A stretch of DNA of 64,000 nt, taken from the NCBI GenBank assembly GCA_032718475.1, contig JAUCBJ010007186.1:10704-74703 (forward strand), given 5' to 3'. The notes beneath the pieces were generated by a model. It did not search any database and was not told where the DNA came from. It was given only the letters and a program-made list of their open reading frames with translations. The position numbers were made by a program, and so were the translations under genes. The DNA comes from Nemertoderma westbladi (lineage: Eukaryota; Animalia; Xenacoelomorpha). Below, one piece after another: positions 4,246-45,436 of the stretch (within the stretch, counting starts at the first letter, position 1; each line of letters starts with the position of its first letter).

Positions 4246-4521
4246 ATGCCTCGGAAGTGCTGCGTGCCAGAGTGTCGGTCAAACTATAAAAACGCCACAC
4301 CATGCAAGGTTTTCCGTATTCCAGGGGAGGAGCCCCATAGATCGTCATGGATTTCCGTATTATCAAAAGTGCGTGCTAATTTGCATGTGACTAAACAAAC
4401 CGTTGTTTGTGAACTCCACTGGCCTGAAAACTATGAAAAGCGCCGTGGTTATCGCACAATTAAAATGATTCCAGCAGATCCACCATCTGTGTGGCCAAAC
4501 ATCGCTCCAAGTTGTACGCCC
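4246..4521 (+). pseudogene. P transposase part 1: THAP zinc finger
   Basis: MPRKCCVPECRSNY...FRIP...W...VCELHW...PPSVW is a C2CH THAP motif. It is interrupted by the LINE. Confidence 0.9.
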
Positions 4522-4541
4522 ACGCCCAGCGTGGGCGTACA

Positions 4542-7080
4542 CCTAGGGTTGATGCTTCTAAAGCCACTGGATCGGATGAGATACCGGCAAAGATAATAAA
4601 GGATGGGTTATCAGTCATTATATCCCCCCTACTGCATATTATTAACCAATCTATAATAACCACTAAGTACCCTACAAGTTACAAGATTGCTCGTGTAAAG
4701 ACTGCATATAAAAGCAGTGGTTCGCGACTAGAGAGAGGAAACTTTCGCACGCTCTCATTACTTCCAATAATGTCTAAAATACTTGAAAGAGTTGCATTTA
4801 ACCAGCTACAAGACCACTATATCAATAACAAACTAATAAATAAACTTCAGTCGGGCTTTCGGGAGGGATATTCAACTGAAACGGCATTAATCTTTGTAGA
4901 TAGCGCTATTAGAAATGGTATGGACAATGGCAAACTCACTGGTATGGTCACTATAGACTTTCGAAACGGAAAGCCTTTGACTGTGTGAATCACAATATAT
5001 TGTTAGAAAAACTAAAGGCTATGGGCGCTACCGATAAAACAAAAGATTGGTTCGAATCATATCTTTCTGGTAGACAACAGTTCGTTGCTATTGGCAACAC
5101 ACGATCGGAGACTAAACCTATTAAAAATGGTGTTCCCCAGGGATCTATCTTGGGAGTTCTACTGTACGAAGGAGACACTAACGACTTCCACATGGTAATA
5201 GAGGATGACACCCTGGACCCAACCTTTGCCGATGACACAAACTTAATAAAAACCAATGATGACTCAGAATTAATTTCTAAATGTTTGAGTACAACAATGG
5301 ACAGAGTATTCGACTGGTGTGTACAAAATAAACTGACAATAAACTTTGATAAGACCTACAGCATACTCATTGGAACACACCAAAAGATAGCTTCCTCTCC
5401 TGAACTAGAAGTCTATTGTGGTGGGCAACGTATAAAAAATGCAAAATCGGTCACTTACCTTGGCTCCGTGCTAGACCAACATCTAAGTGGGACCGAGATG
5501 GCCACAAAGGTAATAAAGAAATGTAACAATAGATTGAAGTTTTTACATAGATATGGCGGATTACTAGACTACTATACAAGACGTTTGCTATGCAATACAC
5601 TGATACAACCACATATCGATTACGCCGCATCTACTTGGTTTTACAGCATAACTCAACGCCTTCGTAAGCAATTGGAAGCACTACAGAGGAAATGTGTTAG
5701 ATATTGCCTTGGTTACAGTCCTTGTGAACATATCGGAATCCAACACTTCAAATAAATAAATTGGCTCCCTCTAAATGAAAGAATAAAGGCAGTTATAGCA
5801 TCACATATGTTTAAAATTGTTAACAACATATCACCCGATTACATGTCAGACCTCGTTAACCTTCGTTGTCAAACACGCTCACTGCGTTCTACTGAGTCAT
5901 CAGCTGCGCTCCCCCATTGTACGACAGTTTGCGGCAAGAAAACGTTCACTTACTTGGGCCCAAAAATTTGGAACGAACTGCCTCAAAGCTTAACGAACGT
6001 GAAAACTTTAGAAGTGTTCAAACACAACCTCAAAGACTACTACCTACAGCAGCTGCTAAGCGAAAATGCAAATGAATACATTTATTATGATTATTAATTT
6101 ATATATAAATAATTAACATAACAAACATTGTATTTTATTGAACTTCATAATTATTTATTTTATAGGCTATATTTTATATATTACAGTGTTTTTATTATTG
6201 CATTTATTGCTATTTTTTATTGTATTTTTCAGTTACTTTTAGCATTTCATTGGCACCATTCCATTTTCATTACAATTTTGGTGCAAATAATATTGTCTGC
6301 CGCATAGAGCACAGGGACCCTTATGGAAACGAGGTGAAACCTCATAAGGCTATCCCTCCATTTTAATATAATATTGCACATTTTCTACTTGTTTTTAATT
6401 TTAAGGTTCTACTTGTTTTATTTTTGTCTACCTTGTTTTATTGATGTCTACCTTGTTTTATTTTGTCTACCTTGTTTTATTTTATATACCTTGTTTTATT
6501 GTATAAAATTATACTGAGACTCCGAGTTAATTTTACTGTACATATGTGATAAGTTTTAAACTATGTGTTCGTATTTTATTGTACCTTGTTAAATAAATTT
6601 TATTGTACCTTGTTAAATAAATTTCATTGTATGTATGTGATACTACTTTTTAAACTGTAGTTACGTACTGATACTCCGAATTAATTTTACTATACATAAT
6701 ATGTGATAAGTTTTAAACTACGTGTTCGTATTTTATTGTACCTTGTTAAATAAATTTTACTGTACGTATGTGATACTACTTTTTAAACTGTAGCTACGTA
6801 ACAGATATATTTTAAACTGTAAATTTTATTTTATTTCAAGTTTAATGTATGTATATACACGTGATTTATTGTAAACTACTGTACAGAGTTAGACCATTTA
6901 TGTTACCTAGGCAAGACAATTTTATTATATAATTTCAAACATGTATTACCATCCATTAATTTACATAATTTACATAAAACAATGTAAAATAAATTACCGG
7001 TAAATTGTGATTTATATATATTATTTCAGTATTGTGCAGTATGTATTTTTATATGGGAAAAAATTCAATCAATCAATCAA
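4542..7080 (+). mobile_element. 5'-truncated L2-group LINE (Crack/Daphne-like)
   Basis: RT motifs NFRTLSLLP, QSGFR, GVPQGSILG, FADDT, YLG; C-terminal QPHIDYA and GPKIWNELP; long AT-rich 3' UTR; (TCAA)n tail ending at 7080. Confidence 0.88.
4557..6097 (+). pseudogene. Non-LTR reverse transcriptase, frameshifted and with a stop
   Basis: ORFs 4491-4988, 4985-5755 and 5807-6097 are consecutive parts of one RT, with a frameshift near 4968 and a stop at 5753-5755. Confidence 0.88.
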
Positions 7081-7533
7081 ACCCACGCTAACAACCGTCC
7101 CCGCAACCGTAAACTCGTTGCATCTATGCGATCATTACAGCCGGACGAGTTACCCCAGTTTCTGCAGGGGGATATTGTGACTTATGGATTTATACATTTG
7201 TTCAAATGTATTCGCAATAACTGGATCCCAAAAAATTGAAAACTATCGAATTTGATGGATGTGTAGCGAAATGGTCCTATATTGAAAATCTTTGAACGAG
7301 AAAAGGCATCATCAATAAAGATTGCCCATCGATTGACACAGAAGGCAGTGTACCCAAAGCCTATTAAAAGACAGGATGTTTCTGCTATGCTCCGTGTGTT
7401 TTGTGATGAAACTATTGTTGCTCTTCGTACTCACGTTGATCCCACTGATGATGATAAAGAAACCGCAACTTTCATTGAGAAGTTTGTTCGCGCATTTAAG
7501 ATACTTAACATTCGCAGTCGCAGTGAAGACCAG
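7081..7533 (+). pseudogene. P transposase part 2 (internally deleted, frameshifted)
   Basis: Reads ...SLQPDELPQFLQGD...IHLFKCIRNNW, then AHRLTQKAVYPKPIKRQDV...RVFCDET...FKILNIRS. These are THAP9/P-like motifs. The N-terminal catalytic region appears to be missing. Confidence 0.8.
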
Positions 7534-8767
7534 TGTAAAAGCTTTTGCGTAATTAGCCGGTTATTATCCCCGTAAAGTACTCTGTGGTTGGTTTACCAGG
7601 CATAAAAAGGCCGTGTCCTTGCTGTACTGGTGTTTTGGAGGACATAAAAGCCATTTCTTCTGTATTTGTACTTTAGAGGACATAATCTGTAATTTCGTGA
7701 CGTAAAAGGCTCGATACTCTTGAAAACAGTGTCGCTACCATGACGACGGCTAACGGCTGATATTGCCACGTTGCAACTTTCTGTATCTGCCAATAGAATT
7801 TGAGTTAGCCTTGATTTTGACCTATCACAGAGCTACTGAACTGAAATTTTCCTATCTCACTGCTCTTTCTCTGTATTGAACGGGAGCTTCGTGGAATAAG
7901 GGTAGCTGGTATTCTTATAGTTATTCTTATCAGTGTTGTTGGTGATTCTAAGCCAGGAAGAACGGCTTTAGAGTATTTTGTGCTTTTCTGCTTTAGCCCT
8001 ACACTAGTAGGCTTAATTATAAGGACATATATCCGTTATCTGCATACTGCATACTGCATACACTGCATACTGTGTAACACTGTGCATACTTTTATATTGT
8101 TATACTGCTATTTACTGTCAGTTCTTCATAATATGGTTGATGAATTATTATATTTGGAATAACGACAAATAACCCCGAAAACCCAATATTCTTGATATAC
8201 CGAAGGTAAGAGAGAAGGGTTACAGATAAATGATTGCGACCTATGTTGAGTGGTTTGAAGTGAATCTAATGTTATTTGATAGACCCTACATGATTCGGTC
8301 CGTGTTCCTTTTATATGTGACTAAAATCAGTGAAGATCGGCAGATCAGTGTGCAGTATTGTGCAGCATTGTGTATGAGTGAGACTGATAACGAAGCATTT
8401 CCTAAAGAATGCGCCATATATGTGAATTGTAACTAAGCCATATCGTTGTGAGTAGTTTAAGTCATAACTCTTTTTATATAGATAGAGCGCCACGTCCTAA
8501 AGGAACTGTTAATATTTCCCGAAGGTGAATAATATTGTCAGAGATTATATAATACTGTCAGTCGAATAATACATTAGGCTTACATAGCAATACGATTAAG
8601 CTGTCGAAATCAATCTCCCGGGTATATCCAATGGGTGAATGATCGCGCACAGATTGGTTTCAACTAGTGTAGTGAATCAAATACTTGTTAGAGGCTAAAG
8701 CGATTTATTATCTAGAAGACATCCTAATTTGGCGGGTTAAACTGCCAAAGGTCTGAAAGCGCGAACA
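7534..8767 (+). repeat. 5' LTR of element A (1234 bp)
   Basis: Near-identical to 20922-22168, apart from a few substitutions and 8-bp and 5-bp indels. Confidence 0.96.
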
Positions 8768-8779
8768 ATAACGGATATA
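8768..8779 (+). promoter_or_regulatory. Non-tRNA primer-binding site, complementary to LTR 8028-8039 (putative self-priming)
   Basis: ATAACGGATATA abuts the LTR end and has no TGG. Its reverse complement TATATCCGTTAT is at 8028-8039. Confidence 0.7.
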
Positions 8780-9929
8780 GCTTCTTTATTGCAGTAAGCA
8801 ATAAAGTTGAAAGTACCGGTAAACCTGAAAGGTACATCTGTAGGTCAGTAGGCCCAACTGCCAGAACCGGTACTGCCGTAGGTCCGTAGGTCCAACTGCC
8901 AGAACCGGTACTTCAGTAGGTCGGTAGGCCTAACTGTCCTAACCGGTACTTCCCGTATAAGTACAGCAGTATTATTCGATTTGATTGTTATATACCAGTA
9001 GGTCTTAATAATTAATCGGGGACGCCTGGTTTTTATTGAGATTTTACTTATTTCTGTCAAGTTTTATTTGTTTGTAGGCCAGTATTGAACAGAAGGCGTG
9101 TAAGCCTGATCAGATTGTACAGACAATTTGTAGGCTGAGCTGTTGTCTGATTGTTGTTAAGTCTGAACGGATTGCAGTATGTGTAGATCACCTGTCCGAT
9201 AAAGAACGGTTAGGAAGTAGGGGCAGCGAATGCTGTAAGGTAAACCCCCAACTAAAGAATAAGTCGTACTACTGGGTTAGAACGCATACTACCTAATTAT
9301 TTCGGAGTCTGCATGTCCTGTAGTTTATTTAGGCTTGAGAGTAGTCTGCCATCGTTGAGTCTGTACTTTGTTTGTGTAAGTCTGTACGGGTAGCGTATAA
9401 TATTTATTTAAATAATTTGTAGGCTGGATAGTTGTCTGGCTGTTATTAGGTCTGAACGGATTGCAGCGTGTGTAGATCATCTGTCCGATAAAGAACGGTT
9501 AGGAAGTAGGGGCAGCGAATGCTGTAAGGTAAACCCCCAACTAAAGAATAAGTCGTACTACTGGGTTAGAACGCATACTACCTAATTATTTCGGAGTCTG
9601 CATATACCGTCAGTCAGGGAGATCATCAATTTTGGGGTTACCCCAAATTTCGAATTCTGGTAATAGACTGTCGAAAATTGGGGTTTTTTGTTCAAATTTG
9701 AGGTATTTTTAGGCTTATAATATCGAGTGTTGCTGCGACTTAGGGAAACTGTTGGAGCAACTTCTACTTTTAATATGTTAAAATATAATGTAAAATAAGA
9801 ACTTTTATCGATGCAATAAAATATTTCACCGATGCAAACATGCTTTTATTGGGGGCGAAAATTGAAATTTGAGGTTAAACCTCAAATTTGAGACAAAACC
9901 TCAAATTTTGCCAGTCTTTACAACATCAC

Positions 9930-11062
9930 CAGCCTGCCAGCAGTAGGGTGTAGCAGTAGGCTTTGCTGCTTAGTGCTTATAGAGCTTGGTGAGAATGGGT
10001 GACCAGTGTAACCTGTGACATGGCATGTATGCAGGGTAGGCTTAACCTTACAGCACAGCAACTTATAGTCAATAACTTCAATGATTGTTAACTCCATTAG
10101 TGATTGGTGATACAAATGCAGAAGACTAGAGAAATTCGCTATTCTTACAGCCTTACTGTTGGTAAGAAGAACAGTAGACCAAATCCTCACTGTTGCGAGA
10201 TTCAAGCTCACACAGCCTGACAGCTGCACAGTCACAGACTCAGGAAGGCCTACTATATCTTGTAGATGTTGAATCAATTCCAGAATTTGGAAGTTTACAT
10301 ATTCTGGAATTCATCTGTTCTGTTCATCATTCATATCACACATCTTCGGAAAAAAATATGTTTTCTGGTTGTTGATGTCCTCTTTAAAACTTTGTATATC
10401 AAATGAATCCATTCCTCTCCTGACAGCCTGAGGACTTATGTAATATTCGCCTGCCCTAGCTCTATCCAGCTATCTGTCACTTGGAATACTGTACCATCAT
10501 TCTTCCACAGTTTGGAGCCCATTTCTAGACAAATGTTGCCGCAAAGGTTGACGTGGTTTATACAATATATGTGGACTTGATTCTTTTGTTAGTTATTCTA
10601 TACGACTGGAGACTCTAAAGTTGGAACCACTACCTACTGCAGTAGGCCTATACATCAACTTCAATTTGATAATGTGCTTTAAACTTATATATAAAGATCT
10701 AAACCTGATCCGCCATCAGTCCATTACAACAATGTGCAACATCCTCGCAGACTATTTTAATATCCCAGCCAGACATCCAATGCAATCATGACCTGGCCAT
10801 ATATATAAAATTATGAAGCAAAGGCCATGCCCTGCCCAGCACATCTGCCCATGTCTGCATGTTCCATACATCACCACTTCTTTATCAGGGTCATTAACAT
10901 ATGGAACATGCTGGACCTGGAACACAGTAGAAACATAATCATCACTAATCGCTATTCTTTTAAACAGTCTTTAGACTCTGCTTTATTATCAAGACATCTG
11001 AAATGTTTTAGAAATCTACTGTAAGTGACTGTTTGTTTATACAGTACTATACATACATACAT
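9930..11062 (+). pseudogene. Highly decayed CR1-type LINE fragment
   Basis: Remnants resembling LEYC..WSP near 10480-10520, HHFFIRVINIWNML (CR1 C-terminus) and a short (TACA)n tail near 11050. Confidence 0.45.
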
Positions 11063-11290
11063 CCTTTTAAATTGACCTTATGAGGAACCAGAATCATTTA
11101 TAACTTGGGCAAAAAGTATAACCTTTTTCACTAACCTATTCTCGAGGCTTTATCTCATCTCTGGAGTACACCTTGCAGGCACTAAAGTTGCATTGTAATA
11201 GTGTGTAGGGATGGATTTTGCTCAAATTTCGATCAAAAATTTTGATCAACACATTCAATAAAGTTTTAGAAATTCCACCAAAAATATTTT

Positions 11291-11554
11291 GGCACTTGTG
11301 TCAATCAAATAGGTGACCCTCCTCGTCCTCATCTGCTAATCCTGAAATCACCAGCTAATCCTGAAATTTAGTGCAGGTGATATCAATATTCCTTACTCTT
11401 GTTTATTATTTTTTTTGGTTACTTTGAACTCACCTCTGTAACCTGCTCCTTTGCTAACCCTGTAACCGGGCATTAGTGAAAGTGACTTTAGTTTAGGTGA
11501 TTTCAGGATTAGCAGATTAGGAGCTAGGAGGGTCCCCTATTTGACACAAGTGCC
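11291..11554. mobile_element. MITE with about 60-bp TIRs (GG...CC ends; Merlin/MULE-like)
   Basis: GGCACTTGTGTCAA...ATCTGCTAATCCTGAAATCACC is mirrored at about 11497-11554. The flanks AATATTTT and AATGTTTT form an 8-bp TSD with 1 mismatch. Confidence 0.75.
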
Positions 11555-13746
11555 AATGTTTTATTTTACTTTTTTTACCGGGAGAAAAAGTAAAATCAAT
11601 GCAAAATTATGGCTCTATGGTACATCATTATGTGGCAATATTATTCAATATGATTGCAGGTTGCTGTGTTGCCGACTTTGCAAAAGCTGTGCCCAACAAA
11701 AAGTTACAATATTCAGATATTATGGGGACAACTTTTTCCCTATCAGTAGGGAAAAAAAGTAGGCCTACTACTTTTTCTCCCGATTTTAGGGCATATTCAA
11801 GCAAAAAGTCACAATATAAAAAAATATATAAGTTCTTTAAGCTCTGTACTTCGTTTTGTACGTCTACCATGATCATACCACCCCGCTGCACCCCTACCAG
11901 TAGCCTTTTTAAGTATAAGCCTTTTTAAACTAATACTGAATATGTTTTAAATATTATATTTCACAACACTCAGACACTAGGCCTACATCAGTTTATTTTT
12001 TTACACTAACAACTAACGCTAACAACTACTGAACTAGGCCAACTATGACTTCTGTCTGTATCTGACTATGCTGCTATGAAATTCAAATTTGGGGTAAAAC
12101 TCAAATTTAGAGAATTAACCTAACGTTGTATTAAATTTGAGGTAATTCCAAAATTGGGTCTATAATTTGAAATTTGAGGTATTCTCAAATTTGATGATCT
12201 CCCTGACTGACCGTAGTTTGTTTAGGCTTGATAGTAGTCTGTCAGTGTTCGGTCTGCATTTTGTTTGAGTAGTTTGTACGCGTAGCGTAATATTTATTAT
12301 TCAGAGTTTATGCGATTATTCGCAACATTCATTCCCCAAGTTTGTTCCTACAGTAATTGTGTTTGTTATACATACCGCTATAGTTAAATTAACCCCGGTA
12401 CTACACGGGCTGCTTGGCGTAGGTAAAGACTGGTGATTTTGTGCATCGGTCACTCCAGCAGATGCCGTGGTTCTTTTAGCTGTTCAAGTATATTTAACTA
12501 CTGATTATATGTTATTCAAGTACTCGTACCTAATTTAGGGTTTAGTGTACAGTGCTTTCCGAAAGTAATTAGTGTAGGCATTACATTTGTGGTGTAAAGT
12601 GGTTAATAGGCACGTTCGATTAGCTCTATTAACTTCTAGGTAGGAACACTCCGTGATACATAACGTAGTACCTATAGCGATACGGCTATAGGTCGTCAGG
12701 CGGTGGTATTTTCCTATCTGGACAACGCAGTGTACTTACTACTAAGTATTATTTTCAAATACCGTAGTACCCTGTCCGTTGTAATAACCAGATTTCTAAC
12801 CCTTTGTTAGGCTGGTTTGTAGACTTCTTGTAAAATTACCCTAAAAATTAATATTTTGTGTTTTTTGTAAATTTTTGTGTTTATTTAGAGATTGTAATCT
12901 CACCCGAATTGTACGTAATTTGTAGTATTAAGTAACTTAGGTAAATTAGAATTATTTGTTTTAGTGTCCTATAAGTAACACTTCACTGAAAGCGCACCGC
13001 TTTGTGTAGTGATTACTCCCCAGAAATAATAACATTTATTTCAAACATTGACAAAACCCATTAAAACGGGTATATATATATTATAAATCAAATCTAAAGA
13101 TTTATAAATAGTAGGCCTACCATACAACCATTAGGTCTCCATATCAGTTGGTCTACTGCTCAAATAGCGGTAATAAAGTAAGTAAAGTAACCAAGTAACC
13201 CTTAAAATTCAGAAATTCAATTATTCTAAAATAATTGACATACCGGTATTTACTATTTACAATAGGCTTATTATATTTATTTCTATAAATTTTAGGTTGA
13301 AATCATACCGGTATTCTGTAATTAATTCTAGTCTGTAATTATACTTATATATATACACTATAAGTGTAAACTGCATACCGGTATTTACGATAGGCCTATT
13401 ATCTTTATTTCTATAAATTTAGGCTGAAATTATACCGGTACTTGTAATTAATTCTAGTCCAGAATTATATATACTACAAACTGTAAGCTGTATACCGGTA
13501 TTCCGATAGGCCTATTATATATTTATATATATTTGTGCTAAAATTATACCGGTATTCTGTGATAAACCTAGTCTGTAATAATAGTTATATATACTATAAG
13601 CATACCGGTATTCTAATATATTATATATATCACGCTACACTGAGTAGCAGTACCGGTAATTAATTACTAGGCTAGCAGTTAATACTGAGTTACTAGACTT
13701 GCTCAGACTGTAATACAGCAGTAGACATTCAACTGTACACATAAGC

Positions 13747-16700
13747 ATGTCTGACGCAAAGCAGAACCTGTCAGACAGTCTACTAGATACAACCGAGAGC
13801 GAAGTGACAGCAGAGAAACCGCATAAGAGGGATGCCATTGACATCTATCTGTCAGACTATCAACGTTTTTTAGGTAATGACGAGTTGAGGAGAAGGTTAG
13901 AGGGACTTAGCCCTAATAGTGAAGGAACCAAGCTTGTGTTGGATGCCATCGATGTGGAAATGAGGGCTGCGAATCAGGCTAAATTTGATGATCAACTCCG
14001 CCTGACACGAGTCCAAGAAGAACAAGTAAAGAAAAAACGTATAGAAGACAGAAAGGCAGCGGCAGTAGCAGCAGCAGTGGCAGCTGCAGAAGCAGAAACA
14101 AAAGCGGCAGCGGCAGTGGCAGCGGCAGAGACAAAAGCGGCAGCGGCAGTGGCAGCGGCAGAGGCAAAAGCAGCAGTCTGGCAGTAGCAGCAGCAAAGGC
14201 AGAGGCCGAAGCGGAAAGAAAAGCGGCACTGGCAACAGCAGAGGCAGTAGCAGAAGCCGAACGGAGAGCGACTGAAGAAACCACCCAATTAGAATTTGAA
14301 AACATTCAGGAGAATCAAGACTGCATAAATAAACAGTTAACAGCTAGTAATATGCAGATGATGAATCGATCTACTCCCAAACGACAGGGATATACATCAT
14401 CTGAGGAAGGCGATACCACCGACACTGAAGGCGGAGGAAATCGATCCCGCCTAAGCAGACGTAAAAGAACATTCCACCGTCAGAAATTGCCTGATTTGCC
14501 TCCAGCTGTTAGAAGGCAACTAAATAACACCAACTTAGAGAGTACAGAACCCACAGACCAAATAATTACAATAGAAAGACTCCCTACTATAGTAGATGAG
14601 CCTGAAATAAGTAGGCCTGTTCTTGAAATCACCCCTTCGGTAATAGATACACCTGTGCTCCCTGAAGCTACCTATAAATTCCCTCTGCATAGCACTAAGC
14701 TACCTGTGCCCCGTAGAACTGCCCAGGAGACAGTTCAGGTCCTGGACCCCGAGCGAAATATTCCAAATTTGTCGCCCGTTGTCCCTCGTCTGCCCGCTAC
14801 GACGTTGGCGGATCCCGTTTCGGCGGTTGATTGGGTAGACGAGAGACGGCGGTGGATGGATATTCTCCTCGGAGAGATGAAGGAGAATCGGATACGCTCC
14901 TCCCAACAGGTCCGAGAGTTGGAAGGGACTGTCCAACATTTAAAGGGAACAGTGAGGGAAAGTAAGTTAGAGTTGCAAGAAGTGCAGCAAAATATCGCGC
15001 TAGAGCGCGATAAATTAGTAAATTTACAAAAGGGTATACCACCACCCCCTGTAACAATGTGTCAACCTGTTAGGTCTGAAGTATCGCATGCGCAAGGTGT
15101 GGAACCTACACGCATATATACTGCTAGCGAAATAGAAACTCCTATAGTGAACCCTATTAAGGGTAATTATAAACCTGTTGATAATGATATCTCATCTAGA
15201 CTTGATAATAATCCGAGAAACTTATATACCGATAATTCTCTATTCAATAATGCGATGGCTCAAGAAAGTTTTACACGCCAAATGGCTAGAACCGAAGCCC
15301 GACAAGCGGTAAAGGTTGGAGAGATCGTCAAGTTCAATGGAGATGAGATGAAATGGTTACCTTTTAATGAATATTACAAAGATAACATACAGAACTCTGT
15401 ACTATCTAATGGAGAGAAACTTAGATTCCTCATCGAGTGCTTGGAAGGATCTCCCAAGTTAATGGCGTTAAAGTTTATTGGACATCCAGACGGATTAAGA
15501 CAAGTTTGGGATACACTAAACATCAGGTATGGTAATAGGACTAACATAGCTAGGTATTTATATGCGAAATTAATGGCGCCCCGAAAGTTTCTTAGCAGCG
15601 GGATTATAGAGTTTTCCGATGAGATTCAGGAGATCTGTAGACAACTAGATTGGTTAGGTAAGTCTCATGAATACCAGAATTCTATGGTTGTAGGAGCCTT
15701 AGCATCTACTTTGCCCAAGGGTGGAGTAGGTACACGCTGGGACAAGAAGGTGTTATATATGATGGAACAACAACGACGAGACCCTACCATGACTGATCTC
15801 ATGTCATTCTTAGATAGAGAAGTGAAATTACAGCTCCTAAGGCAGTCCAGAGAGAAGACATTGGAAAACAAGGTAAGTGAGAAACCCGTTTCTAGGAGAA
15901 GGGTAACACCAGTATGTTATACCGACGACGGTGAAAGCCAAACTTCTCAAGGAGAGGACAGCGGGAAAGACACTGACAGATCTTATTATGTCAATAAAAT
16001 GCCTAAAGATCAGGTAAGTAAATCCGAGTCTCGACCCAATGACAGAAGGGAACCGGTACAAAAAACCCTTCCTACGTCTCCTAAAGGAATTCAGGTGAGA
16101 AAGCCCGAGGAAAGAACAAGTGTGCACCACATAGCACAGGTTAAAGTAAGTAACATCAAGCCGAAATGTGTGCTGTGCGACGGGCCCCACCGTTTAAATG
16201 CGTGTGATAAATTCCTGAGGAAATCACTAAAGGATAGACGTGAAGTCATGTGGGATAAGCGGTTGTGTTATAATTGCCTCAGACGAGGACACCAACGGCG
16301 AACCTGTTACTCCGACGCAAGGTGTGCAAAGTGCGGCGCAAAACATCATATCTTGTTGCACACGGAATTCGAACGAAACAGCCCGAGTCAGGTAAGTGAG
16401 TCCGAACTACATGTCCAATTCAGTGATGTGAACGACACTGATCAATCTGAGATGGAAGGATTCTATACGGACGAGTTCTCCGACGAAAACGAATCCTGTT
16501 ACTTAATAAACACCACCGCAGTGTATCGAGCACTCATGCATGAGAAAGACACAGACAGCGACCTTACCTTAACTACTTCCGATCAACAACCATCTTGGAA
16601 AGCGCCAACTTCCAATATAAGAATCCGAGAATTTCCTGTAGTCCAGTTACGGGTCCACGGACCTCAGAAGAGCTATATAGTGAACGCCCTCCTGGACTCC

Positions 16701-17913
16701 GGTAGCACAGGAACATTCATCGATAAAGAACTAGCCGAAGTCATCTTTGCTGGACAACCCAAGTTCCGAACCAAGCTAAACATGTCAGGGATCATGCAGG
16801 TTTGGAATTCTACTGTAGCTGCCGACTATTATATAGGTGAGTTGTCCACTCCACAGGATAAACTAGGAGAATACAGTATAAGGTCAGTAAAAATGGTGGC
16901 AATAAAGAACTTCGCTACCACCCAAGGGGAACCTTATAATTGGGACGAAGATGATCATGCCCAACAACTTAACATCCCTAGATTCGACACCGATTATCCT
17001 GGAGTACAAATATTAATCGGTCAAAACGCGCATGAGGCGCTGGAGACATTGGAGAAACAACCTGCTCAACCGCAACCACTTCAGACCTATGCGGTAAGAA
17101 CTAGAGTAGGTTGGTACCTTACTGGACCTTCCCGTAGAATGCTCAGGGAAAGACTGCTTCAAGATTGCGTCTGCCAGGTGAGTGAATGGGAAGACGATAC
17201 TAGTGAGGGAGACGAACCAACTGAGGGAACACCACACTCCTCAGATAATGACAATCTTAACTCCAATGTAGATCAATGGAGATATTGCCCCAAGACGATG
17301 AATACAACTGACATCGCTTCCAGAGGAGCAACTCCTCAAGAACTGACAGATACTACAGACCGGTTAGGTGAACCCGACTTCCTGAGTAAGGAGGATGAAT
17401 GGTCTCCCCATCTTACTCCGACTGAGATTAGACCAGCCAAGGGAGCGGAGAAAGTCAAACCTAAAACCCGGACGGGTGGATCGGAGTTATTTGAACCCGG
17501 GATAGATCTGTATTCTGTCTGTATTACATATTGCCAGGGACGACGCCGTGGATCTGGACCTCCCCACCGCGAGTGGATCCTTCATGAAGATCAGAGAGAG
17601 CGATTGGAGCTCTGGAACATCAGACGTCTCGCAGGGACTCTCACCTCTCCTGCAGGGAGCGACGGACCACTATAGCTCCTGGAATCAGCTTTGTAAGGCC
17701 GTCGTGTACTTAGAGCGATGTTTCTATCGTCACTATTCCAGGACGAAGAGGAAACCTGGAATTGTATTCGGGATGCAGCGACTCAATCACCCAGTCGGTC
17801 GTTTGTGCTTACCGGAAGGGAATGGAGGACTTTCCGGAAACTGTGGAAGGCAAGATTCTCTTCCCACGACCACCTCCCTAATCCTTCAAACATCTAGGGA
17901 CTCCATAACGTAA
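13747..17913 (+). pseudogene. BEL/Pao gag-protease of element A with residual pol fragments
   Basis: The 1107-aa ORF 14352-17675 has the Pao gag domain (KFNGDEMKW...EKLRFLIECL), three Cys/His knuckles and protease ALLDSGS. There is a frameshift in the Ala-rich tract near 14185. After about 17255 only scraps of the post-RNase H region and IN C-terminus remain. Confidence 0.9.
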
Positions 17914-19569
17914 CAACATATGGAGTGGGTGTGTGACTCTATTATTTTATATTATTTTATTATTTTTATATTTCTGTATGTATTACTATGTAATTTTATT
18001 ATAATCGTTTTCTTTAATTTTATTCAGTAGAATGTTATTTTAGCGATTATTTAGTAGATTAGTGCAATATATATTCGCGTTTATTATTTAATTACTTATA
18101 TTATATTTAGTGAGACGGCGAAGAAATAATTATTTTTCTCTTTCCTTACTGTCCGTATTATATTATAAATACGTAACTACAGTAAGATGAAATGTCCGTA
18201 CTTATTAAAGTACAATAAAGCCACTACTATATTTAAGTATTATTGGTAGGCAGAGTATTAGGAATGCAAAGTTCAGATCCTCGTGTCTCGGCTAAACCAA
18301 GCTCTGGGTAGACCTTGGAAACGACTTGCCTCTTCACACTGACATTGCTTCGTGCGATATTGCTCTCATACCGTATATTAAATAATACATATAGTAGCGT
18401 GATGTCCCTTTAACAGTAGCGTATAACGCAAAATAAATCTGTTAAACCCTTTGACCATCTGTAATTCTAGTCGATTAAGATATCGCGGCACCCACCGATA
18501 TACTTGAAAGACAAATTCTAGAATCAGTGGTTAACGTCCCCAGACAAGTTCTGGAATAAATCGGTGCCCATCTCAAATTTTAATTATTTAATATTTGCAA
18601 ATCTAATAAATCAAAATCTGTAAAATTCAGATCCTTCAACAATTCTAGTCAATTAAGATATCGTAGCATTTACCGATATTCTTAAAAAAGACAATTGTCA
18701 TAGAATTAAGGATCTTGTGTCCCTAGACATGTTCTAGAATCAAAATATGTCCATTTAATTATCAAATAATAAAATTTCAGGGAATAAATTTAAATTCATG
18801 CCTTTTAATGAATTTAATAAATTGCCATTTTTACGCAATTTATAAAGTTCCCAAAATTCCATTAATTAATAGATCAAGGGAGCGGAGATTTATCTTATCA
18901 TGCGTATGAGTGTGTGAAAGTCTCCCAAACATAGTCAATAGCCGATAAAATTCATAAAGTCATGTATAAGACAGAACATTGACTATTAAAGAATACTATT
19001 AAATAACATCCCAGATCTGTATGCATTGGAATTACCCTAATTCTACCGCTAGCTTTGCATAATGTCACCATAGCAACAACCACGCTAGAATTAGAATTGA
19101 GTTAAAAGAACAATAGAAAGCTTGTCCCATTGAATAGCATAGGGAATAAATAGCGCACTACTAGTATCCAAGGATACATAATAATACAGTGACATTCTGG
19201 AAGGCATTGACTAACGGACAAATGGCCCGAATGTGTGTAATTTGTGACAAGTTGTGTGTGTGGTATTTGTGAGTTTATAGGTGAATGTTACTGCTAAAGT
19301 GTGTTTACAGTAGCTAGTCGCAATCGTAAAAGTAACCTAACTCTCCAAGGAAAACCTGAAGTACATCTAAGCCTTTGGGACGGACAGTTGAGTGACTTGT
19401 GCCGGTTGTCGTTGTCGTTGTGCGGCTACGTCGTTGGCGAAAGTACAGCGGCGACGACACATCGGCGCTGAGGATCTCGTACTGTCCGGGGGTTGATTGG
19501 GGTAGGCAGCGACGCCCGCTCGCCTAAATATAAACTCATTATAATATGGATAAACTCATATATAGCAGA

Positions 19570-20844
19570 TATGACGGAGTTGATAGAAGATGGTCTTGGT
19601 ATCGGGGAGCGATATACTCTACTTTTACAAGCGTTTGTTGATAGCTTAATACGCGGCGACGTTAGCCCAACTGCTGCGGAGGACGATGGTCGTTATATCG
19701 AACCGCCAATGTCCCAAGAGCAGCTCGCGCGAGTTGGACTATAGAAAATTCGCTGCTCGATATACGCAGCGTAATGGTACGTATATGGGCTTCTTAACTA
19801 CTGATCATCCTATCGATTTACACAATACGGCTATATATCCTGCCCAGCGGAGTCGGAACCATAAATTGAAATTCGAATGCGAAAATTATATTCGAAATCG
19901 GCTCGAAAGAAAAGGCATTAAAGAAACAAATAAACGCGGTAACTCCAACATATATTTGGAATTCTTGATAGAAGCATTGTAACAACAAATAAATATCACC
20001 CGCGTTTACCCTACCAGACGTGCGTCTTTGGTATTATTACGATAAATGCCCTAGACCCAACTAATAAACGGAAAGACATAAACATCCACGTAAACCGAAA
20101 CTTGTTGACGTATCACCTATGCTCACTCGGCTCGAACGATCCTGGAGTAAACCTACGATCAGAGTCCCGGAATACTCGGTCAAACCTCCTCATTCCTTAG
20201 TTGGACCTCAGACCTGCGATCCTGGTGGTGTCGCGGATCCTCGCGGACTGTATTCACTGTTCAAAGATCTAGTGCTACCCTAACAATTAATCGGTAACAC
20301 TCCGACAGTGATTTCTAGCTAGCCGCCCATCTTACCTAGCCGGATTGTGACGCGGACACCTAATATCACTATCCAACCGTATGGTCGTCCCCGTTTAACG
20401 CGATACAACCCCTCATCAAGGTGAAGGAGAGCGTTGTACGAAACGAGTTAAACGCTATTCTATAAAGATCAAAAGGGAAACCTGCGTTTGTTCAGATAAA
20501 CGTAAGTTATAACAGTAAGTCCAATCGATAAACGAATTGGCCTTATCTCAATTCGATTGAGAAATCTCGAATCTCTAAGAAGATATCAAGCTTAGAAAAC
20601 CCTATTCTCTGCGAGAGTTTTTGATGAACGTATCCAGCTACGAGCGAAGGAAAATCAGCTCGAGGAGAAGCATATAGAAACGGCGGATACCCCGACCATA
20701 ATCCTACACCTTCTGATGCAATCATATTGCACCCTTCACCCATGATTTATAGCCCTCCTAGTAAAGTGGCTCGCCCTAAAGAGAAAAGGACTCTTGCTAG
20801 CCTCAAAAAACTGCGTAAACGCCGTCTGCGTAAGAAAGACTAAC
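19570..20844 (+). other. Broken extra ORF region of unknown function in the 3' part of element A
   Basis: MTELIEDGLGIGERY... through to a basic tail ending LRKRRLRKKD*; many stops and frameshifts; homologous to 44028-45358. Confidence 0.35.
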
Positions 20845-20921
20845 TGTTTAGAGTATCTTTATATTTTAGAAACTGTGATTTGTTATATTTTATAGACTTA
20901 AATCCCATTTTCTGGGAGCGG

Positions 20922-22168
20922 TGTAAAAGCTTTTGCGTAATTAGCCGGTTATTATCCCCGTAAAGTACTCTGTGGTTGGTTTACCAGGCATAAAAAGGCC
21001 GTGTCCTTGCTGTACTGGTGTTTTGGAGGACATAAAAGCCATTTCTTCTGTATTTGTACTTTAGAGGACATAATCTGTAATTTCGTGACGTAAAAGGCTC
21101 GATACTCTTGAAAACAGTGTCGCTACCATGACGACGGCTAACGGCTGATATTGCCACGTTGCAACTTTCTGTATCTGCCAATAGAATTTGAGTTAGCCTT
21201 GATTTTGACCTATCACAGAGCTACTGAACTGAAATTTTCCTATCTCACTGCTCTTTCTCTGTGTTGAACGGGAGCTTCGTGGAATAAGGGTAGCTGGTAT
21301 TCTTATAGTTATTCTTATCAGTGTTGTTGGTGATTCTAAGCCAGGAAGAACGGCTTTAGAGTATTTTGTGCTTTTCTGCTATAGCCCTACACTAGTAGGC
21401 TTAATTATAAGGACATATATCCGTTATCTGCATACTGCATACTGCAGTACTGCATACACTGCATACTGTGTAACACTGTGCATACTTTTATATTGTTATA
21501 CTGCTATTTACTGTCAGTTCTTCATAATATGGTTGATGAATTATTATATTTGGAATAACGACAAATAACCCCGAAAACCCAATATTCTTGATATACCGAA
21601 GGTAAGAGAGAAGGGTTACAGATAAATGATTGCGACCTATGTTGAGTGGTTTGAAGTGAATCTAATGTTATTTGATAGACCCTACATGATTCGGTCCGTG
21701 TTCCTTTTATATGTGACTAAAATCAGTGAAGATCGGCAGATCAGTGTGCAGTATTGTGCAGCATTGTGTATGAGTGAGACTGATAACGAAGCATTTCCTA
21801 AAGAATGCGCCATATATGTGAATTGTAACTAAGCCATATCGTTGTGAGTAGTTTAAGTCATAACTCTTTTTATATAGATAGAGCGCCACGTCCTAAAGGA
21901 ACTGTTAATATTTCCCGAAGGTGAATAATATTGTCAGAGATTATATAATACTGTCAGTCGAATAATACATTAGGCTTACATACAGTAGCAATACGATTAA
22001 GCTGTCGAAATCAATCTCCCGGGTATATCCAACGGGTGAATGATCGCGCACAGATTGGTTTCAACTAGTGTAGTGAATCAAATACTTGTTAGAGGCTAAA
22101 GCGATTTATTATCTAGAAGACATCCTAATTTGGCGGGTTAAACTGCCAAAGGTCTGAAAGCGCGAACA
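20922..22168 (+). repeat. 3' LTR of element A (1247 bp)
   Basis: Follows the PPT, ends GCGAACA and is followed by TSD ACCAG. Confidence 0.96.
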
Positions 22169-22173
22169 ACCAG

Positions 22174-23057
22174 CACTTAAACGACCCACTGCACCAACCA
22201 TTTACAGACTCAAATGACCCACGACTCTCCGAGTTACTGATGCTGGCTAACCAAATCGACTCAATGGATTGCAAAAATAACAACCTTCGCTGTCATACTT
22301 TTACTATTGATACTGCTAAGGCCATCTCTCATACATTTCGTGGCATTGTACATTTGATTCGCCATTGTCTCAACAATAGTTTTCAATATGTACTCCCCGG
22401 TCAGTTTGCCACCGATCCCCTGGAAAAGACGTTTGGACGGATCCGATAGTCAGCAGGCGGTACTTATTTCATATCTGCAGTCCAGGCAATGCAATATTAC
22501 TCTATACAAAAGACCAAATTAATAACTGCATTGGATCAAGATTTTCTAGATTTTCAATCAACTAGCGGAGCTCATAAATGTGATAACTGTGTTTTCATGC
22601 TAACCGAAGAGGACGCTGCAGTATTCGATTCCTTGTCAGCCCTTGAGGTTGACGAGTTGGCCTTCGACACAAAGTCTGCTTTGCTATATGTTGCTGGTTA
22701 TATACAGCGTTATATTCCCAACGATGATGACGATGACACATACTTTTATGCAATGCAGTTTGGCGGCTTTCTTGGTGAACTAAATCGAGGGAAATTGGTT
22801 ACACCATCCGATGCCTTTGTCCAGTTTACATTCTTTGCTTACATCATGTTTATTAGTTTAAACAAGCACAGGCTATGTCGTTTTAGTTTAACCAATATTT
22901 TTGAAACAATTGCGGATAGTTATTTCGCCCAAGTCGTGCCAAAGGCAGAAAGGAGTGCTGTACCAGACTGTGCAACATATTTCTTAATAATTACAGTGTA
23001 TTAGTCACCCCTACAAGCTCTAAGGAAACATCAATTAAAGCAATCAAGTTGTGCTAA
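22174..23057 (+). pseudogene. P transposase part 3 (catalytic E region and C-terminus)
   Basis: Continues in frame across the TSD (SEDQ|HLNDP). Contains YVLPGQFATDPLEKTFGRIR*SAGG, LLYVAGYI and LNRGKLVTPS. In-frame stop at 22447-22449. Confidence 0.88.
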
Positions 23058-23626
23058 TGATATGTTTTTCAATTAAAGCAATCAAGTTGTGCTAATGATA
23101 TGTTTTATTTATTGCCATACAGTAAAGTTAATTACGTTAAGTGTGAAGTTATCAGGCTAAGTATAAAGTAAAACCATAAGTGTAAAGTTATCACCCTAAA
23201 TTTAAAGTGCTGCTTAACAAAGAAAATTTATAATAAATTTTTATTCTAGGGATGGATGTGATTTTTAAATAAGACCAATTTCAATTAATTATAATCCAGC
23301 AGATTAACAGACAAACTGTAATCAATGACATAAAGTTTAATTAAAGTTTCATAACGTATGCATGCATCCTACGGAAAACGTATTTAATGCATAGTTATCA
23401 GGTTTTGTGATGATGACACCACCACTAATAGTTATAGGTAGGTTATTACAGGTCGGCCGCCAAGTCAGAATCGTACCTGCACGTTGGCTCGGCCTGTAAT
23501 ATACAGATATAGTAGGCTATGATCCACGGGTACGGATTTGTGATATTACGTACCAATACTGCAATACCGGTACTGACTGACTGACTTCTGGACATAGGCT
23601 AAATAATTACTAGCATCAGCTTGTTA

Positions 23627-25414
23627 ATGTTACAGCTACAAACAGACAAAGGACAGAAGGAACACAGAACAATGAGTTTCCCTTGGCTAAGAAAATCTAA
23701 ACGAGTTTTCCCAGTACCGGAAAGCGATACCGAAACCATGGAATCGCCGGCAATTAATTCACCAAAACGTCGGAGAATAGGTAGAGATGAAAAAACTAAT
23801 GAGACAATAAAACAAGAGGAGGTCGGCTTAAATAACGAGTATGGAGCTGTAAGTATGAATGACACGGATGGAACTGTAAGTATAGATGGAACTGTACCGG
23901 TACCGGTGAGTATGGATGGAACTGAAATGTTAATAAGCAGAACTCAACCACATGTTAATGACATCGAGAGACGCCGTGAAGAGAATCTCCGAATAAATCG
24001 TGAAGTTCTGGCGGAGTTGGGAATCGGTATCGGGAGTACCACCAGGCCTAATCCTGCAAGTCCTAAACGCAAAAATAAACCGGTTAAATACGAGATCAAA
24101 CGGAAGGATTATGTGACGGACCATGTTAGTAGAGAGCCGACGAGGAAGTCTGCCAGACTGCAAGGGAAGCCGGTACGGTCTCCCAGTAGTGCGGGGGAGA
24201 CAGAAGGGAATAGAACGGGGGGTTCTAGAACTTACAGTTCCACTGCGGTTGTGGATGTTGTACCTTATAACGTACCTTTACCGGAAGTCATAAAGGCCGA
24301 GTGTCTGGAGGTTTCTTACTTAGCGAAGTTGGTTAAAAAGGAAGTGGATTGGGAGGAGTCGTCAAGGACACTGCAGTCTCTTCTCTCGGAGGCGTCGTTA
24401 GCGGAGGCGTACCAGGTTACTGCGACGGAAGAGCGCGCGGTGGATACAGTGGCACGCATCAGTAGTCTCCGAGTGGAAGAGGAGTGGGTCAGGAAGGTGG
24501 TACCCGGTCGCGTGTTCTCATTGGCTTGGTTGGCGACCAATGAGAAGCCGACTGTGGTCGTCGGCGACAAGTACGGCCATCTGGGTGTCTGGAGCGTCTC
24601 GGACGGGGGTGTATACGTGACGCGGCCGCACAGCGGCGCTATCAACTGCGTGCGGTGTCCCACCGAGAAGCCCGATACGGTGTACACGACGAGTTACGAC
24701 GGAACATTCCGTGAGTTCCGGCTGCGTTCTGGACGGTTCCACCGGATGTACGCGGCGGACGCGTTGGTGACCTGGATGGACCGCGTGGACGCGTCCACCG
24801 TGCTACTGTCGCAACGGGACGGCTGTGTGACGCGACTCGACTTCCGGGAGGCCTCACGTCCCTCAGTCTGGAACCTGTCCGCCTCCGGATTCCGGTGTGT
24901 TTCTGTCTGTCCGGCCGCCGTCCCCCGCTACTTCGCCACCGCTGGCGTCGACGCCACCGTGCGACTGTTTGACCTCCGCTTCCCCACGAAATCCCTCGCT
25001 ACGCTCGGCCATGGCCGCGTCGTTAACTCAGCCTTATTTACGCCGCACTCTGGCGACAACCTACTCACCACCAGCGCCGACGACACCGTTAGGATATACG
25101 CCACTAGCGGCGTTATAGCGAACCACACTGCTGCCTCGGTTTCTATGAAACACAACAACTATACCGGCCGATGGCTCACTAAGTTCCGCGCGACTTGGCA
25201 TCCCAGACAGACGGATCTCTTCGTTATCGGCTGTCTGGACCGGCCCCGTAGAGTCGAACTCTTTAGCAGTCGGGGAGTTCGATTGGCAAACCTGTTCGAC
25301 GAGAATCTCACGACGGTTACCTCCATCAACGAGTTCCATCCCTCCCTAGACTACCTGGTGGGTGGAAACTCGTCTGGTAAACTATTTGTCTGGGGACCCC
25401 AAACTGGGCGGTAA
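23627..25414 (+). CDS. WDR76: WD repeat-containing protein 76 (CMR1 family), intronless
   Basis: N-terminal IERRREENLRINREVLAELG; WD40 propeller with GDKYGHLGVW, TTSYDGT, DATVRLFDLR, HNNYTGRWLTKFRATWHP and GGNSSGKLFVW, typical of WDR76/Cmr1. The start may be ATG 23627 or 23672. Confidence 0.9.
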   Translation: MLQLQTDKGQKEHRTMSFPWLRKSKRVFPVPESDTETMESPAINSPKRRRIGRDEKTNETIKQEEVGLNNEYGAVSMNDTDGTVSIDGTVPVPVSMDGTEMLISRTQPHVNDIERRREENLRINREVLAELGIGIGSTTRPNPASPKRKNKPVKYEIKRKDYVTDHVSREPTRKSARLQGKPVRSPSSAGETEGNRTGGSRTYSSTAVVDVVPYNVPLPEVIKAECLEVSYLAKLVKKEVDWEESSRTLQSLLSEASLAEAYQVTATEERAVDTVARISSLRVEEEWVRKVVPGRVFSLAWLATNEKPTVVVGDKYGHLGVWSVSDGGVYVTRPHSGAINCVRCPTEKPDTVYTTSYDGTFREFRLRSGRFHRMYAADALVTWMDRVDASTVLLSQRDGCVTRLDFREASRPSVWNLSASGFRCVSVCPAAVPRYFATAGVDATVRLFDLRFPTKSLATLGHGRVVNSALFTPHSGDNLLTTSADDTVRIYATSGVIANHTAASVSMKHNNYTGRWLTKFRATWHPRQTDLFVIGCLDRPRRVELFSSRGVRLANLFDENLTTVTSINEFHPSLDYLVGGNSSGKLFVWGPQTGR

Positions 25415-26290
25415 ACTGTTTGTCTGGGACCCCAAACTGGGCGGTAAACTGTTTGTCTGGGACCCCAAACTGGGCGGTAAACTGTTTGTCTGGGACCCCA
25501 AACTGGGCGGTAAACTGTTTGTCTGGGACCCCAAACTGGGTGGTAAACTGTTTGTCTGGGACCCCAAACTGGGCGGTAAACTGTTTGTCTGGGGACCCCA
25601 AACTGGGCGGTAAACTGTTTGTATGGGACCCCAAACTGGGCGGTAAACTGTTTGTCTGGGACCCCAAACTGGGCGGTAAACTGTTTGTCTGGGACCCCAA
25701 ACTGGGTGGTAAACTGTTTGTCTGGGACCCCAAACTGGGCGGTAAACTGTTTGTCTGGGGACCCCAAACTGGGCGGTAAACTGTTTGTATGGGACCCCAA
25801 ACTGGGCGGTAAACTGTTTGTCTGGGACCCCAAACTGGGCGGTAAACTGTTTGTCTGGGACCCCAAACTGGGCGGTAAACTGTTTGTCTGGGGACCCCAA
25901 ACTGGGCGGTAAACTGTTTGTCTGGGACCCCGAACTGGGCGGTAAACTGTTTGTCTGGGACCCAAAACTGGGCGGTAAACTGTTTGTCTGGGAACCCCAA
26001 ACTGGGCGGTAAACTGTTTGTATGGGACCCCAAACTGGGCGGTAAACTGTTTGTCTAGGACACCAAACTGGGCGGTAAACTGTTTGTCTGGGACCCCAAA
26101 CTGGGTGGTAAACTGTTTGTCTGGGGACCCCAAACTGGGCGGTAAACTGTTTGTCTGGGGACCCCAAACTGGGCGGTAAACTGTTTGTCTGGGACCCCAA
26201 ACTGGGCGGTAAAATGTTTGTCTGGGACCCCAAACTGGGCGGTAAACTGTTTGTCTGGGACCCCAAACTGGGCGGTAAACTGTTTGTCTG
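25376..26290. repeat. 33/34-bp minisatellite (GGTAAACTGTTTGTCTGGGACCCCAAACTGGGC)n, about 27 units
   Basis: Tandem array that begins inside the last WDR76 codons. Confidence 0.97.
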
Positions 26291-26852
26291 TTCACATTAT
26301 CATTGATGTTTCTGTATATCATTCATTAGATTAATCACTTTCATTTTAAATCATCGTAATTTAGATATCATGTCTTCGTTAATGCAGTTTTACTAATGCA
26401 GTTCATGTCTTACATTTTACTATGCAATATTATTTATGTTTTTAATATCTTTACATAAATAAATCATTATTTACATAAATATCTTAATATTTTTAATAAA
26501 GTTAAGAATATTCTGACTGATTAGTTTTATTTTGACACGAAATACGTGGCACCGAGAGGAGGGGGGGGGGGGGCACTCGTAAATTCCATTTCTAACTCCA
26601 TATTGTTTGTATTTATTTTTATTTTTTATTATTTTTTCTTGGAAAGGAAATTTGCATGTATATGGTACTGGCTCAGATAGAGTGAAAAATAATGTAAAAA
26701 ATATATTTTTTTCACAAATTTCTAAACCCCATAAAAGTACAGTATATATTATTCGGCGAGCTGATTTAAAATATCATACTTAAATATAAAGATAATAAAG
26801 AGCTAAAAAGTTATCAGCAATATTCTAAATAAATCGCTCTTATACTCAAGGT

Positions 26853-29552: not shown

Positions 29553-30914
29553 TCTACTTTTACAAGCGTTTGTTGATAGCTTAATACGCGGCGACGTTAG
29601 TCCAACTGCTGCAGAGGACGATGGTCGTTATATCGAACCGACAATGTCCCAAGTGCAGCTCTCGCGAGAGTTGGACTATAGAAAATTCGCTGCTCGATAT
29701 ACGCAGCGTAATGGTACGTATATGGGCTTCTTAACTACTGGTCATTCTATCGATTTACACGATACGGACTATGTCGAACATATCCTACCCAGAGGAGTCT
29801 AAACGATAAACCAAAATTCTAATGCGAAAATCCTATTAGAAATCGACTCGAAAGAAAAGACATTAAAGAAACAAATAAACGCGGTAACTCCAACATATAT
29901 TTGGAATTTTTGATAGAAGCATTGTAACAACAAATAAATATCACCCGCGTTTCTCCTTCAAGACTTGCGTCTTTGGTATTATTACGATAAATGCCCTAGA
30001 CCCAGCCAAAAAACGGAAAGACATAAACATCCACGGAAACGTTGTGTTAAACACAGTTGTGCTCGTTATATTTACTGAAGTTTCGAGCGAAACTTGTTTG
30101 ACGTATCACCTATGCTCACTCGGCTCGAACGATCCTGGAGTAAACCTACGATCAGAGTCCCGGAATACTCGGTCAAACCTCCTCATTCCTTAGTTGGACC
30201 TCAGACCTGCGATCCTGGTGGTGTCGCGGATCCTCGCGGACTGTATTCACTGTTCAAAGATCTAGTGCTACCCTAACAATTAATCGGTAACACTCCGACA
30301 GTGATTTCTAGCTAGCCGCCCATCTTACCTAGCCGGATTGTGACGCGGACACCTAATATCACTATCCCACCGTATGGTCGTCCCCGTTTAACGCGATACA
30401 ACCCTTCATCAAGGTGAAGGAGAGCGTTGTACGAAACGAGTTAAACGTTATTCTATAAAGATCAAAAAAGAAACCTGCGTTTGTTCAGATAAACGTAAGT
30501 TATAACAGTAAGTCCAATCGATAAACGAATTGGCCTTATCTCAGTTCGATTGGGAAATCTCGAATCTCTAAGAAGATATCAAGCTTAGAAAACCCTATTC
30601 TCTGCGAGAGTTTTGGACGAACGTATCCCATGACAAGCGGAGGAAAATCAGCTCGAGGAGAAGCATATCGAAATGGACGAGACACCGATCGTAACCCTGC
30701 ACCTTCTGATGCAATTATATTGCACCCTTCGCCTAGGAGCTACAGCCCTCCTCGTAAAGTGGCTCGCCCCAAAGAGAAAAGGACTCTTGCTAGCTTTAAA
30801 AAACTGCGTAAACGCCGTCCGCGCAAGAAAGACTAACTGTTTAAAGTATTTATGTATATTAGAAATTGTGATTTTGTATATTTTATAGACTTAAATCCCA
30901 TTTTCTGGGAGCGG
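29553..30914 (+). mobile_element. Truncated 3' internal segment of a tandem BEL/Pao copy
   Basis: Near-identical to about 44075-45436, and ends in the PPT just before the LTR at 30915. Confidence 0.93.
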
Positions 30915-45358: not shown

Positions 45359-45436
45359 CTGTTTAAAGTATTTATGTATATTAGAAATTGTGATTTTGTA
45401 TATTTTATAGACTTAAATCCCATTTTCTGGGAGCGG

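Follow-up and report, generated by a model that had tools for sequence, protein, structure and literature searches.

We analysed a stretch of 64,000 nucleotides (hereafter the window, with positions counted from its first letter) on contig JAUCBJ010007186.1 of the Nemertoderma westbladi assembly GCA_032718475.1. Two young copies of a long terminal repeat (LTR) retrotransposon, A and B, lie in it in the same orientation, with the following parts.

7534-22168, forward strand: element A, with LTRs of 1234 and 1247 bp and TGT...ACA ends
7529-7533, forward strand: left target-site duplication of A, ACCAG (right copy 22169-22173)
7534-8767, forward strand: 5' LTR of A, 1234 bp, TGT...ACA
13992-17675, forward strand: gag-protease open reading frame (ORF) of A
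20914-20921, forward strand: polypurine tract (PPT) of A (B counterpart 45429-45436)
20922-22168, forward strand: 3' LTR of A, differing from the 5' LTR by 3 substitutions and 2 indels
30915-46594, forward strand: element B, 15.7 kb
30915-32073, forward strand: 5' LTR of B, 1159 bp
34273-37845, forward strand: gag frame of B (DUF1759, three Cys-His boxes), ending at an in-frame stop
37846-42381, forward strand: pol frame of B with protease, reverse transcriptase (RT, YMDD), RNase H, and integrase
45437-46594, forward strand: 3' LTR of B, differing from the 5' LTR by 1 substitution and 1 indel

Both are BEL/Pao retrotransposons, as the initial annotation had proposed. The assignment follows from BEL-specific Pfam domains above cut-off (DUF1759, Peptidase_A17, and DUF5641, next to an integrase zinc finger), from the Cys-His boxes, and from the ALLDSGS, YMDD, and acidic-residue motifs. 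The accessible part of PMC554778 describes a triple Cys-His box in Gag and an LLDxG protease motif for BEL/Pao; in B the three Cys-His boxes fall within Gag 1072-1137, and pol contains ALLDSGS, with its motifs in the order PR-RT-RH-IN. Across a 30-sequence alignment the acidic residues of the RT, RNase H, and integrase motifs do not vary, and those of RNase H are present in B as D731, E772, D802, and D848. The elements thus share with the Belpaoviridae of the ICTV profile (PMC8742986) the three Cys-His boxes, LLDSG, the PR-RT-RH-IN order, a PPT, TG...CA LTRs, and a 5-bp target-site duplication (seen in A only). They depart from that profile in size and priming: it gives genomes of 4.2-10 kb and an 18-nt primer-binding site (PBS) for tRNA-Arg or tRNA-Gly, whereas B measures 15.7 kb and neither such a PBS nor a TGG was found after the A and B LTRs. 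The closest database relatives, among them echinoderm, cnidarian, mollusc, and nemertean proteins, reach only 43-44% identity over RT-RNase H.

The two copies are damaged or rearranged to different extents. A has lost its RT region (positions 17252/17271 match 38568/40348 in B), which makes it non-autonomous, and its leader holds a 2.6-kb insert (9605-12210) that B does not have and that one contig of a related sequencing run skips. In B, an in-frame stop at 37843-37845 separates the gag and pol frames at a point where the frame of A is open; it is either a lesion or a read-through site. The leader of B (32074-34273) is unusually long at 2.2 kb and contains repeats of ~289 nt, and its 3-kb 3' region (42381-45436) has no ATG-started ORF of at least 100 aa. 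Directly before the 5' LTR of B lie a PPT and 1.36 kb of 3' UTR (29553-30914), 99.8% identical to the 3' region of B itself, which could stem from another copy upstream, either tandem or truncated, or from aberrant strand transfer. Since a left duplication is also missing, B probably follows a truncated copy, with which it probably shares its 5' LTR. The sequence after both 3' LTRs starts with ACCA (ACCAG at 22169-22173, ACCAT at 46595-46599), possibly a target preference (n=2).

A is flanked by open stretches resembling P-element/THAP9-type transposases (7270-7533 and 22174-22446), the first with a weak match to a TNP-like GTP-binding domain (E=0.042). Broken non-LTR-type RT ORFs on the reverse strand (27719-29540; weak RVT_1 match, E=0.012) lie directly left of the B array. 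Elsewhere in the window we found a split RT (4464-5755), a WD40-repeat ORF (23603-25414), a Ulp1-like protease ORF (46697-47224), and satellite arrays at 1-1000, 25260-26400, 49000-50800, and 52500-61000.

At the position where a tRNA would be expected to anneal, A and B carry a short sequence that matches their own LTR. The features concerned are as follows.

8028-8039, forward strand: predicted self-primer 12-mer of A (copies 21416-21427, 31329-31340, and 45851-45862)
8768-8779, forward strand: PBS-position 12-mer of A, without TGG, adjoining the LTR end
32074-32085, forward strand: PBS-position 12-mer of B
8728-8749, forward strand: U5 hairpin with an 8-bp stem including one G-U pair
8784-8806, forward strand: 9-bp hairpin directly 3' of the PBS, with 0/500 shuffles equally stable

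The 12-mer TATATCCGTTAT occurs once per LTR (8028, 21416, 31329, and 45851), and its reverse complement is found only at 8768 and 32074, with a gap of 0 nt after the terminal ACA. The missing TGG, the exact 12-nt self-complement, and its identity in A and B at both sites, all claimed from the first inspection of the sequence, hold at every coordinate. Twelve paired nucleotides at gap 0 exceed the sequence criterion by which Tf1-type self-priming has been predicted, namely at least 10 complementary nt starting 0-5 nt after the LTR (accessible part of PMC6317226). The 3' base of the 12-mer is paired to the base that immediately follows the LTR, and on extension the terminal CA would therefore be copied first. 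By comparison, no other anchored Watson-Crick match in either LTR exceeds 5 nt. Under order 0-2 models 2.2-4.2e-4 such 12-mers are expected per LTR, and in an empirical null only 2 other positions of 12,138 in the internal region of A reach 12 nt. The self-complement is non-random. A chance inverted repeat might still be argued from the fact that A and B, being identical at both 12-mer sites, display no covariation and count as one independent instance; given the low chance figure and the family-specific matches and compensatory changes of the relatives described below, which largely refute it, we regard coincidence as exceedingly improbable.

How much A/B conservation tells depends on the region. 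The 12-mer sits at the 3' edge of an identical island of 40 nt (8001-8040), as first noticed, whose flanks have diverged (46-54% identity upstream, 50% downstream). From 8080 to the LTR end, on the other hand, the two LTRs are 90-100% identical in every 50-nt bin, and the U5 hairpin and PBS both lie inside a single A/B-identical run of 119 nt (8702-8820). The U5 hairpin, which had been put forward as conserved, is indeed present in all four LTRs, but its conservation in B is weak evidence because this whole region is near-identical; 7/500 shuffles are equally stable. The hairpin at 8784-8806, absent from the initial annotation, is the stronger of the two. Additional pairing upstream of the window 12-mer is not significant (p=0.07-0.09), and another helix on the 5' side of the core has little statistical support either in the window (p=0.07-0.17) or among 21 cases (p<0.05 in 3/21). 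ARAGORN detected no tRNA or tRNA-like gene in the window or in the 33 of 78 relative loci scanned, and Rfam returned three weak matches below the gathering score.

For RNA folded from the 12-mer as far as 60 or 150 nt beyond the PBS, the 12-bp helix is predicted with a probability of 0.97 in A and 0.94 in B. The helix is kept with up to 16 extra 5' nt in both elements; further additions abolish it in B (at 20 or more) and give varying results in A, and with 300 nt past the PBS or a start 60 nt upstream its probability drops to ~0. Folding is therefore compatible with the self-priming model rather than support for it, long-range predictions of this kind being fragile. Side duplexes like those of the Tf1 'pretzel' were not found in A or B (22-76/100 shuffles equally good); in their place the PBS of the window is flanked by the two local hairpins.

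Self-priming also depends on where the transcript begins, on which the LTR gives mixed signals.

8018-8022, forward strand: TATAA, 10 nt before the 12-mer (B counterpart 31319)
7790-7794, forward strand: CCAAT box common to A and B, a candidate upstream promoter (B 31098)
7864, forward strand: TCT-like pyrimidine motif after the CCAAT box (B 31171)
7980-7996, forward strand: pyrimidine tract plus TAG, a candidate splice acceptor (B 31297)

The initial annotation predicted a start at about 8028, making the 12-mer the first 12 nt of the RNA; this start site is unsupported. Its own caveat, a TATA-like motif about 10 nt upstream, proved justified at both 8018 and 31319, and if this TATAA is the promoter, transcription would start downstream of the 12-mer. 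The CCAAT box, the TCT-like motif, and the acceptor-like tract (31 nt before the 12-mer, with weak upstream donors) would argue for an upstream start, the TATAA for a downstream one.

A downstream start is the basis of another explanation, in which the 12-mer would lie only in U3 at the 3' end of the RNA and would pair with the PBS from there, or the primer would come from a second RNA. It suits the TATAA at 8018 and the CA dinucleotides 26-33 nt beyond it in both A and B, and the A LTR contains no AATAAA that would fix the poly(A) site. A cut at that place, however, would strip R from the RNA concerned, the CCAAT box and TCT-like motif of A and B offer another promoter, and in the relatives a poly(A) signal follows the complement in 8/10 families while one family (F1) has a TATATAA upstream of it. 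We thus hold priming from the 3' copy or a second RNA to be quite unlikely.

Sequencing data related to the window add little to this point. One run of uncertain type (X1) has 16% of words in common with the window, and 201 of its contigs show related copies of the window elements, without the 2.6-kb insert of A. One contig joins 7771 to 7992, near the candidate acceptor, which a diverged copy would fit equally well. Of the 174 contig differences, 40 were viewed, and none of these 40 falls in either 12-mer.

More can be learned from relatives. Metagenome contigs were scanned with the 30-sequence pol alignment, and we worked with the best 78 of 532 confirmed matches, which form 47 DNA clusters, the relatives having 39-44% RT-RNase H identity; a scan of viral contigs gave no relative (0/47 pattern matches). 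For 10 families the LTR end could be fixed by aligning two LTRs or sister loci (in F10, LTR and PBS were taken from two sister loci). Within these best 78 matches, none of the 10 fixed-end families has a TGG after the LTR, and all 10 possess, in at least one copy, a perfect family-specific self-complement of 9-15 nt. In nine of them the copies tested reach 9-15 nt with at most 2/300 shuffles as long; the tenth shows 6 nt in L065 and 11 nt in a second copy, L066.

The complement is contiguous in only two families (L014 and L031, 10 nt each), whereas in the other eight it is split by a predicted LTR intron of the form GT[AG]AG...YAG. All 13 spliced cases have GTAAGT, GTGAGT, or GTAAGG as donor, and 12 of them carry T at the sixth donor position, for which no selection was made. 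A contiguous-only anchored scan of the relatives (at least 11 nt, gap 0-2) found nothing at true LTR ends and looked negative until introns were allowed. The scoring used strict pairs, a gap of 0-5 nt, and enumerated candidate introns. Critically speaking, the 10-family set is not blind, as the splice pattern was first spotted in it by eye and the gap (to 5 nt) and the acceptor cut-off were widened after results had been seen. When LTRs and PBSs were swapped among the 10 families and the window, 5/110 pairs reached at least 9 nt and 2/110 at least 10 nt, both of the latter between families having the same 11-mer; we kept to strict pairs since scoring G-U pairs loosened this null (21/110 swaps at 9 or more).

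The held-out set comprised 49 loci outside the 10 families. Twenty of them were set aside, 11 because they lacked a gag anchor and 9 because too little of the LTR was present; in the remaining 29 every ACA was tried as the LTR end. Matches reached by no more than 1/40 shuffles appeared in 12/29 loci against ~1.5 expected, six spliced and six contiguous. L063 was afterward dropped as support, its match forming a local hairpin 15 nt from the end, so that 11 remain; L054 (3/40 shuffles) was not counted. The other 17/29 loci gave no self-complement signal, several of them having truncated LTRs, such as L018, which starts inside the intron.

Compensatory changes between PBS and LTR, which the initial annotation had suggested looking for across related BEL families, do occur among the relatives: L047 and L050, 83% identical at the DNA level over gag-pol, differ by two such changes inside an 11-bp helix. 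Covariation of this kind proves pairing rather than priming, and it leaves room for the duplex to be a selected RNA structure, for instance one that switches the RNA from translation to packaging or back, or one that masks the spliced mRNA, with priming done by something else. The splice dependence in the relatives would suit a mark distinguishing spliced from unspliced RNA, and Tf1-like side arms are missing. Against this, the end of the helix invariably falls within 0-5 nt of the LTR end, the place from which priming has to begin (although this spread is wider than a simple model predicts), and neither the 10 fixed-end families nor the window offer an alternative TGG site. A purely structural role is in our view unlikely.

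In many relatives (L001, L003, L006, L036, L065, and L067) the LTR is followed by a TTCGA-like core, of which a direct repeat often lies in U5 ~40-105 nt upstream. The core resembles part of a tRNA-Tyr-type PBS and is possibly an ancestral remnant. The same core could be invoked for priming by a host tRNA half, an internal tRNA fragment, or another small RNA, the LTR match then being incidental. The PBS, however, differs in nearly every family and each time matches the family's own LTR, compensatory changes are not predicted by a fixed host RNA, and the window match has a chance expectation of 2-4e-4. Half-tRNA priming does have a precedent in Copia lineages (accessible part of PMC6317226); as an account of the elements studied here, it strikes us as very unlikely.

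Self-priming is the best explanation for a PBS that changes from family to family and yet agrees each time with the LTR of its own element. For the window, we consider it likely, judging from sequence comparison, that this BEL/Pao family without a tRNA-type PBS primes minus-strand DNA with its own transcript. Transcription would start upstream of or at 8028, and the LTR 12-mer would anneal to the 12 nt that adjoin the 5' LTR on its 3' side. A cut after 8039, at the 3' end of the 12-mer and probably made by the element's RNase H, would release the primer, from which RT would copy U5 and R back to the cut. The nascent DNA would then jump to the 3' LTR, which would restore the consumed segment and any intron. 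Once the primer is itself copied into plus-strand DNA, the PBS would be re-created and the two arms would stay complementary.

In most relatives, the primer would be built by splicing of the predicted GT-AG intron in the LTR. As their complement straddles that intron, pairing would depend on the predicted splicing and need not involve the first nucleotides of the RNA. In 8/10 families the complement is followed by an AATAAA or ATTAAA, and F1 has its TATATAA 31 nt upstream of the complement (the only one of 10 families with a TATA-like box ~30 nt before the arm), which together place the pairing arm of the relatives probably in R, though often not at +1. The window family is a contiguous form, and contiguous families may arise where the 3' copy has also been spliced. 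RT-RNase H sequences differ by 37-55% between families, and on the tree the spliced families are intermixed with the contiguous ones. The window pol forms a long branch with no supported place among them, so the behaviour of the relatives is carried over to the window by analogy. For the wider picture, the balance tips only slightly toward a broad lineage of aquatic-invertebrate BEL/Pao elements without tRNA priming, most of which would have their primers built by the spliceosome through removal of a 5' LTR intron. Splicing would then license reverse transcription, the intron would be inherited via the unspliced 3' LTR, and the window family would be a derivative that lacks the intron, its contiguous primer pairing exactly over 12 bp.

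Within the BEL family, Cer7 of C. elegans reportedly carries a proposed tRNA-like 'self primer' in its 3' region. Cer7 resembles the window elements in being proposed to supply its own primer; it differs in reportedly mimicking a tRNA 3' end alongside a normal PBS, while ARAGORN detected no tRNA-like gene in the window. The established case is Tf1, whose self-priming (PMC7175516, PMC4600332, PMC10085805, PMC5341516), primer release through RNase H cleavage (PMC7175516, PMC4600332), and 'pretzel' of two flanking side duplexes (PMC10085805) are described in the accessible parts of these papers. As far as these sources go, Tf1, Tf2, Tj1, and the Tf1/sushi group share with the window elements the missing tRNA PBS and a short LTR segment complementary to a PBS adjacent to the LTR. 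The differences are considerable. Tf1/sushi elements are Ty3/gypsy chromoviruses, whereas the window elements are BEL/Pao and show no chromodomain among their Pfam matches. In Tf1 the 5'-terminal 11 nt of the RNA serve as primer, whereas the window 12-mer is a predicted primer. The side duplexes of Tf1, as described in the accessible text, have no counterpart found in A or B, R-U5 of the window would be at least 740 nt long, and the arm of the relatives is split by a predicted intron.

Self-priming has also been predicted for Tcn1 chromoviruses and for the Copia TAR lineage (Houba, Osr-1), and the window agrees with both in the length and position of its complement; these are plant Copia and Gypsy elements, and the accessible part of PMC6317226 mentions no intron-split arm for them. 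Fungal GalEa elements with their 'conserved hairpin site' and bivalve TRIMs similarly have a hairpin near the LTR end and no tRNA PBS, but their authors found no LTR complement, which the window does have (accessible parts of PMC5445492 and PMC6934838). Among BEL/Pao surveys, PBS and primer terms were absent from the accessible main text of PMC3118150, PMC554778, and PMC6238403, and PMC8220671, in its accessible part, mentions the PBS in general only (PMC3601003 and PMC2864245, also in part, complete the literature base). A search at title and abstract level, with most subscription journals, Repbase reports, and supplements outside its scope, found no description of self-priming or a splice-built primer in BEL/Pao. 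Self-priming is thus a known mechanism for which we found no earlier description in BEL/Pao, and a prior mention may exist.

If true, self-priming would be present in all three LTR superfamilies and would explain the failed PBS searches in many marine-invertebrate elements. It would also allow LTR ends and start regions to be annotated by a simple rule, and it should free these elements from control by tRNA fragments. A splice-built primer, if real, would connect RNA processing with retroelement replication in a new way. As a last observation on the relatives, the PPT before the 3' LTR is conserved as AGGGGCCGG in ~34/78 of them, the window PPT being GGGAGCGG.
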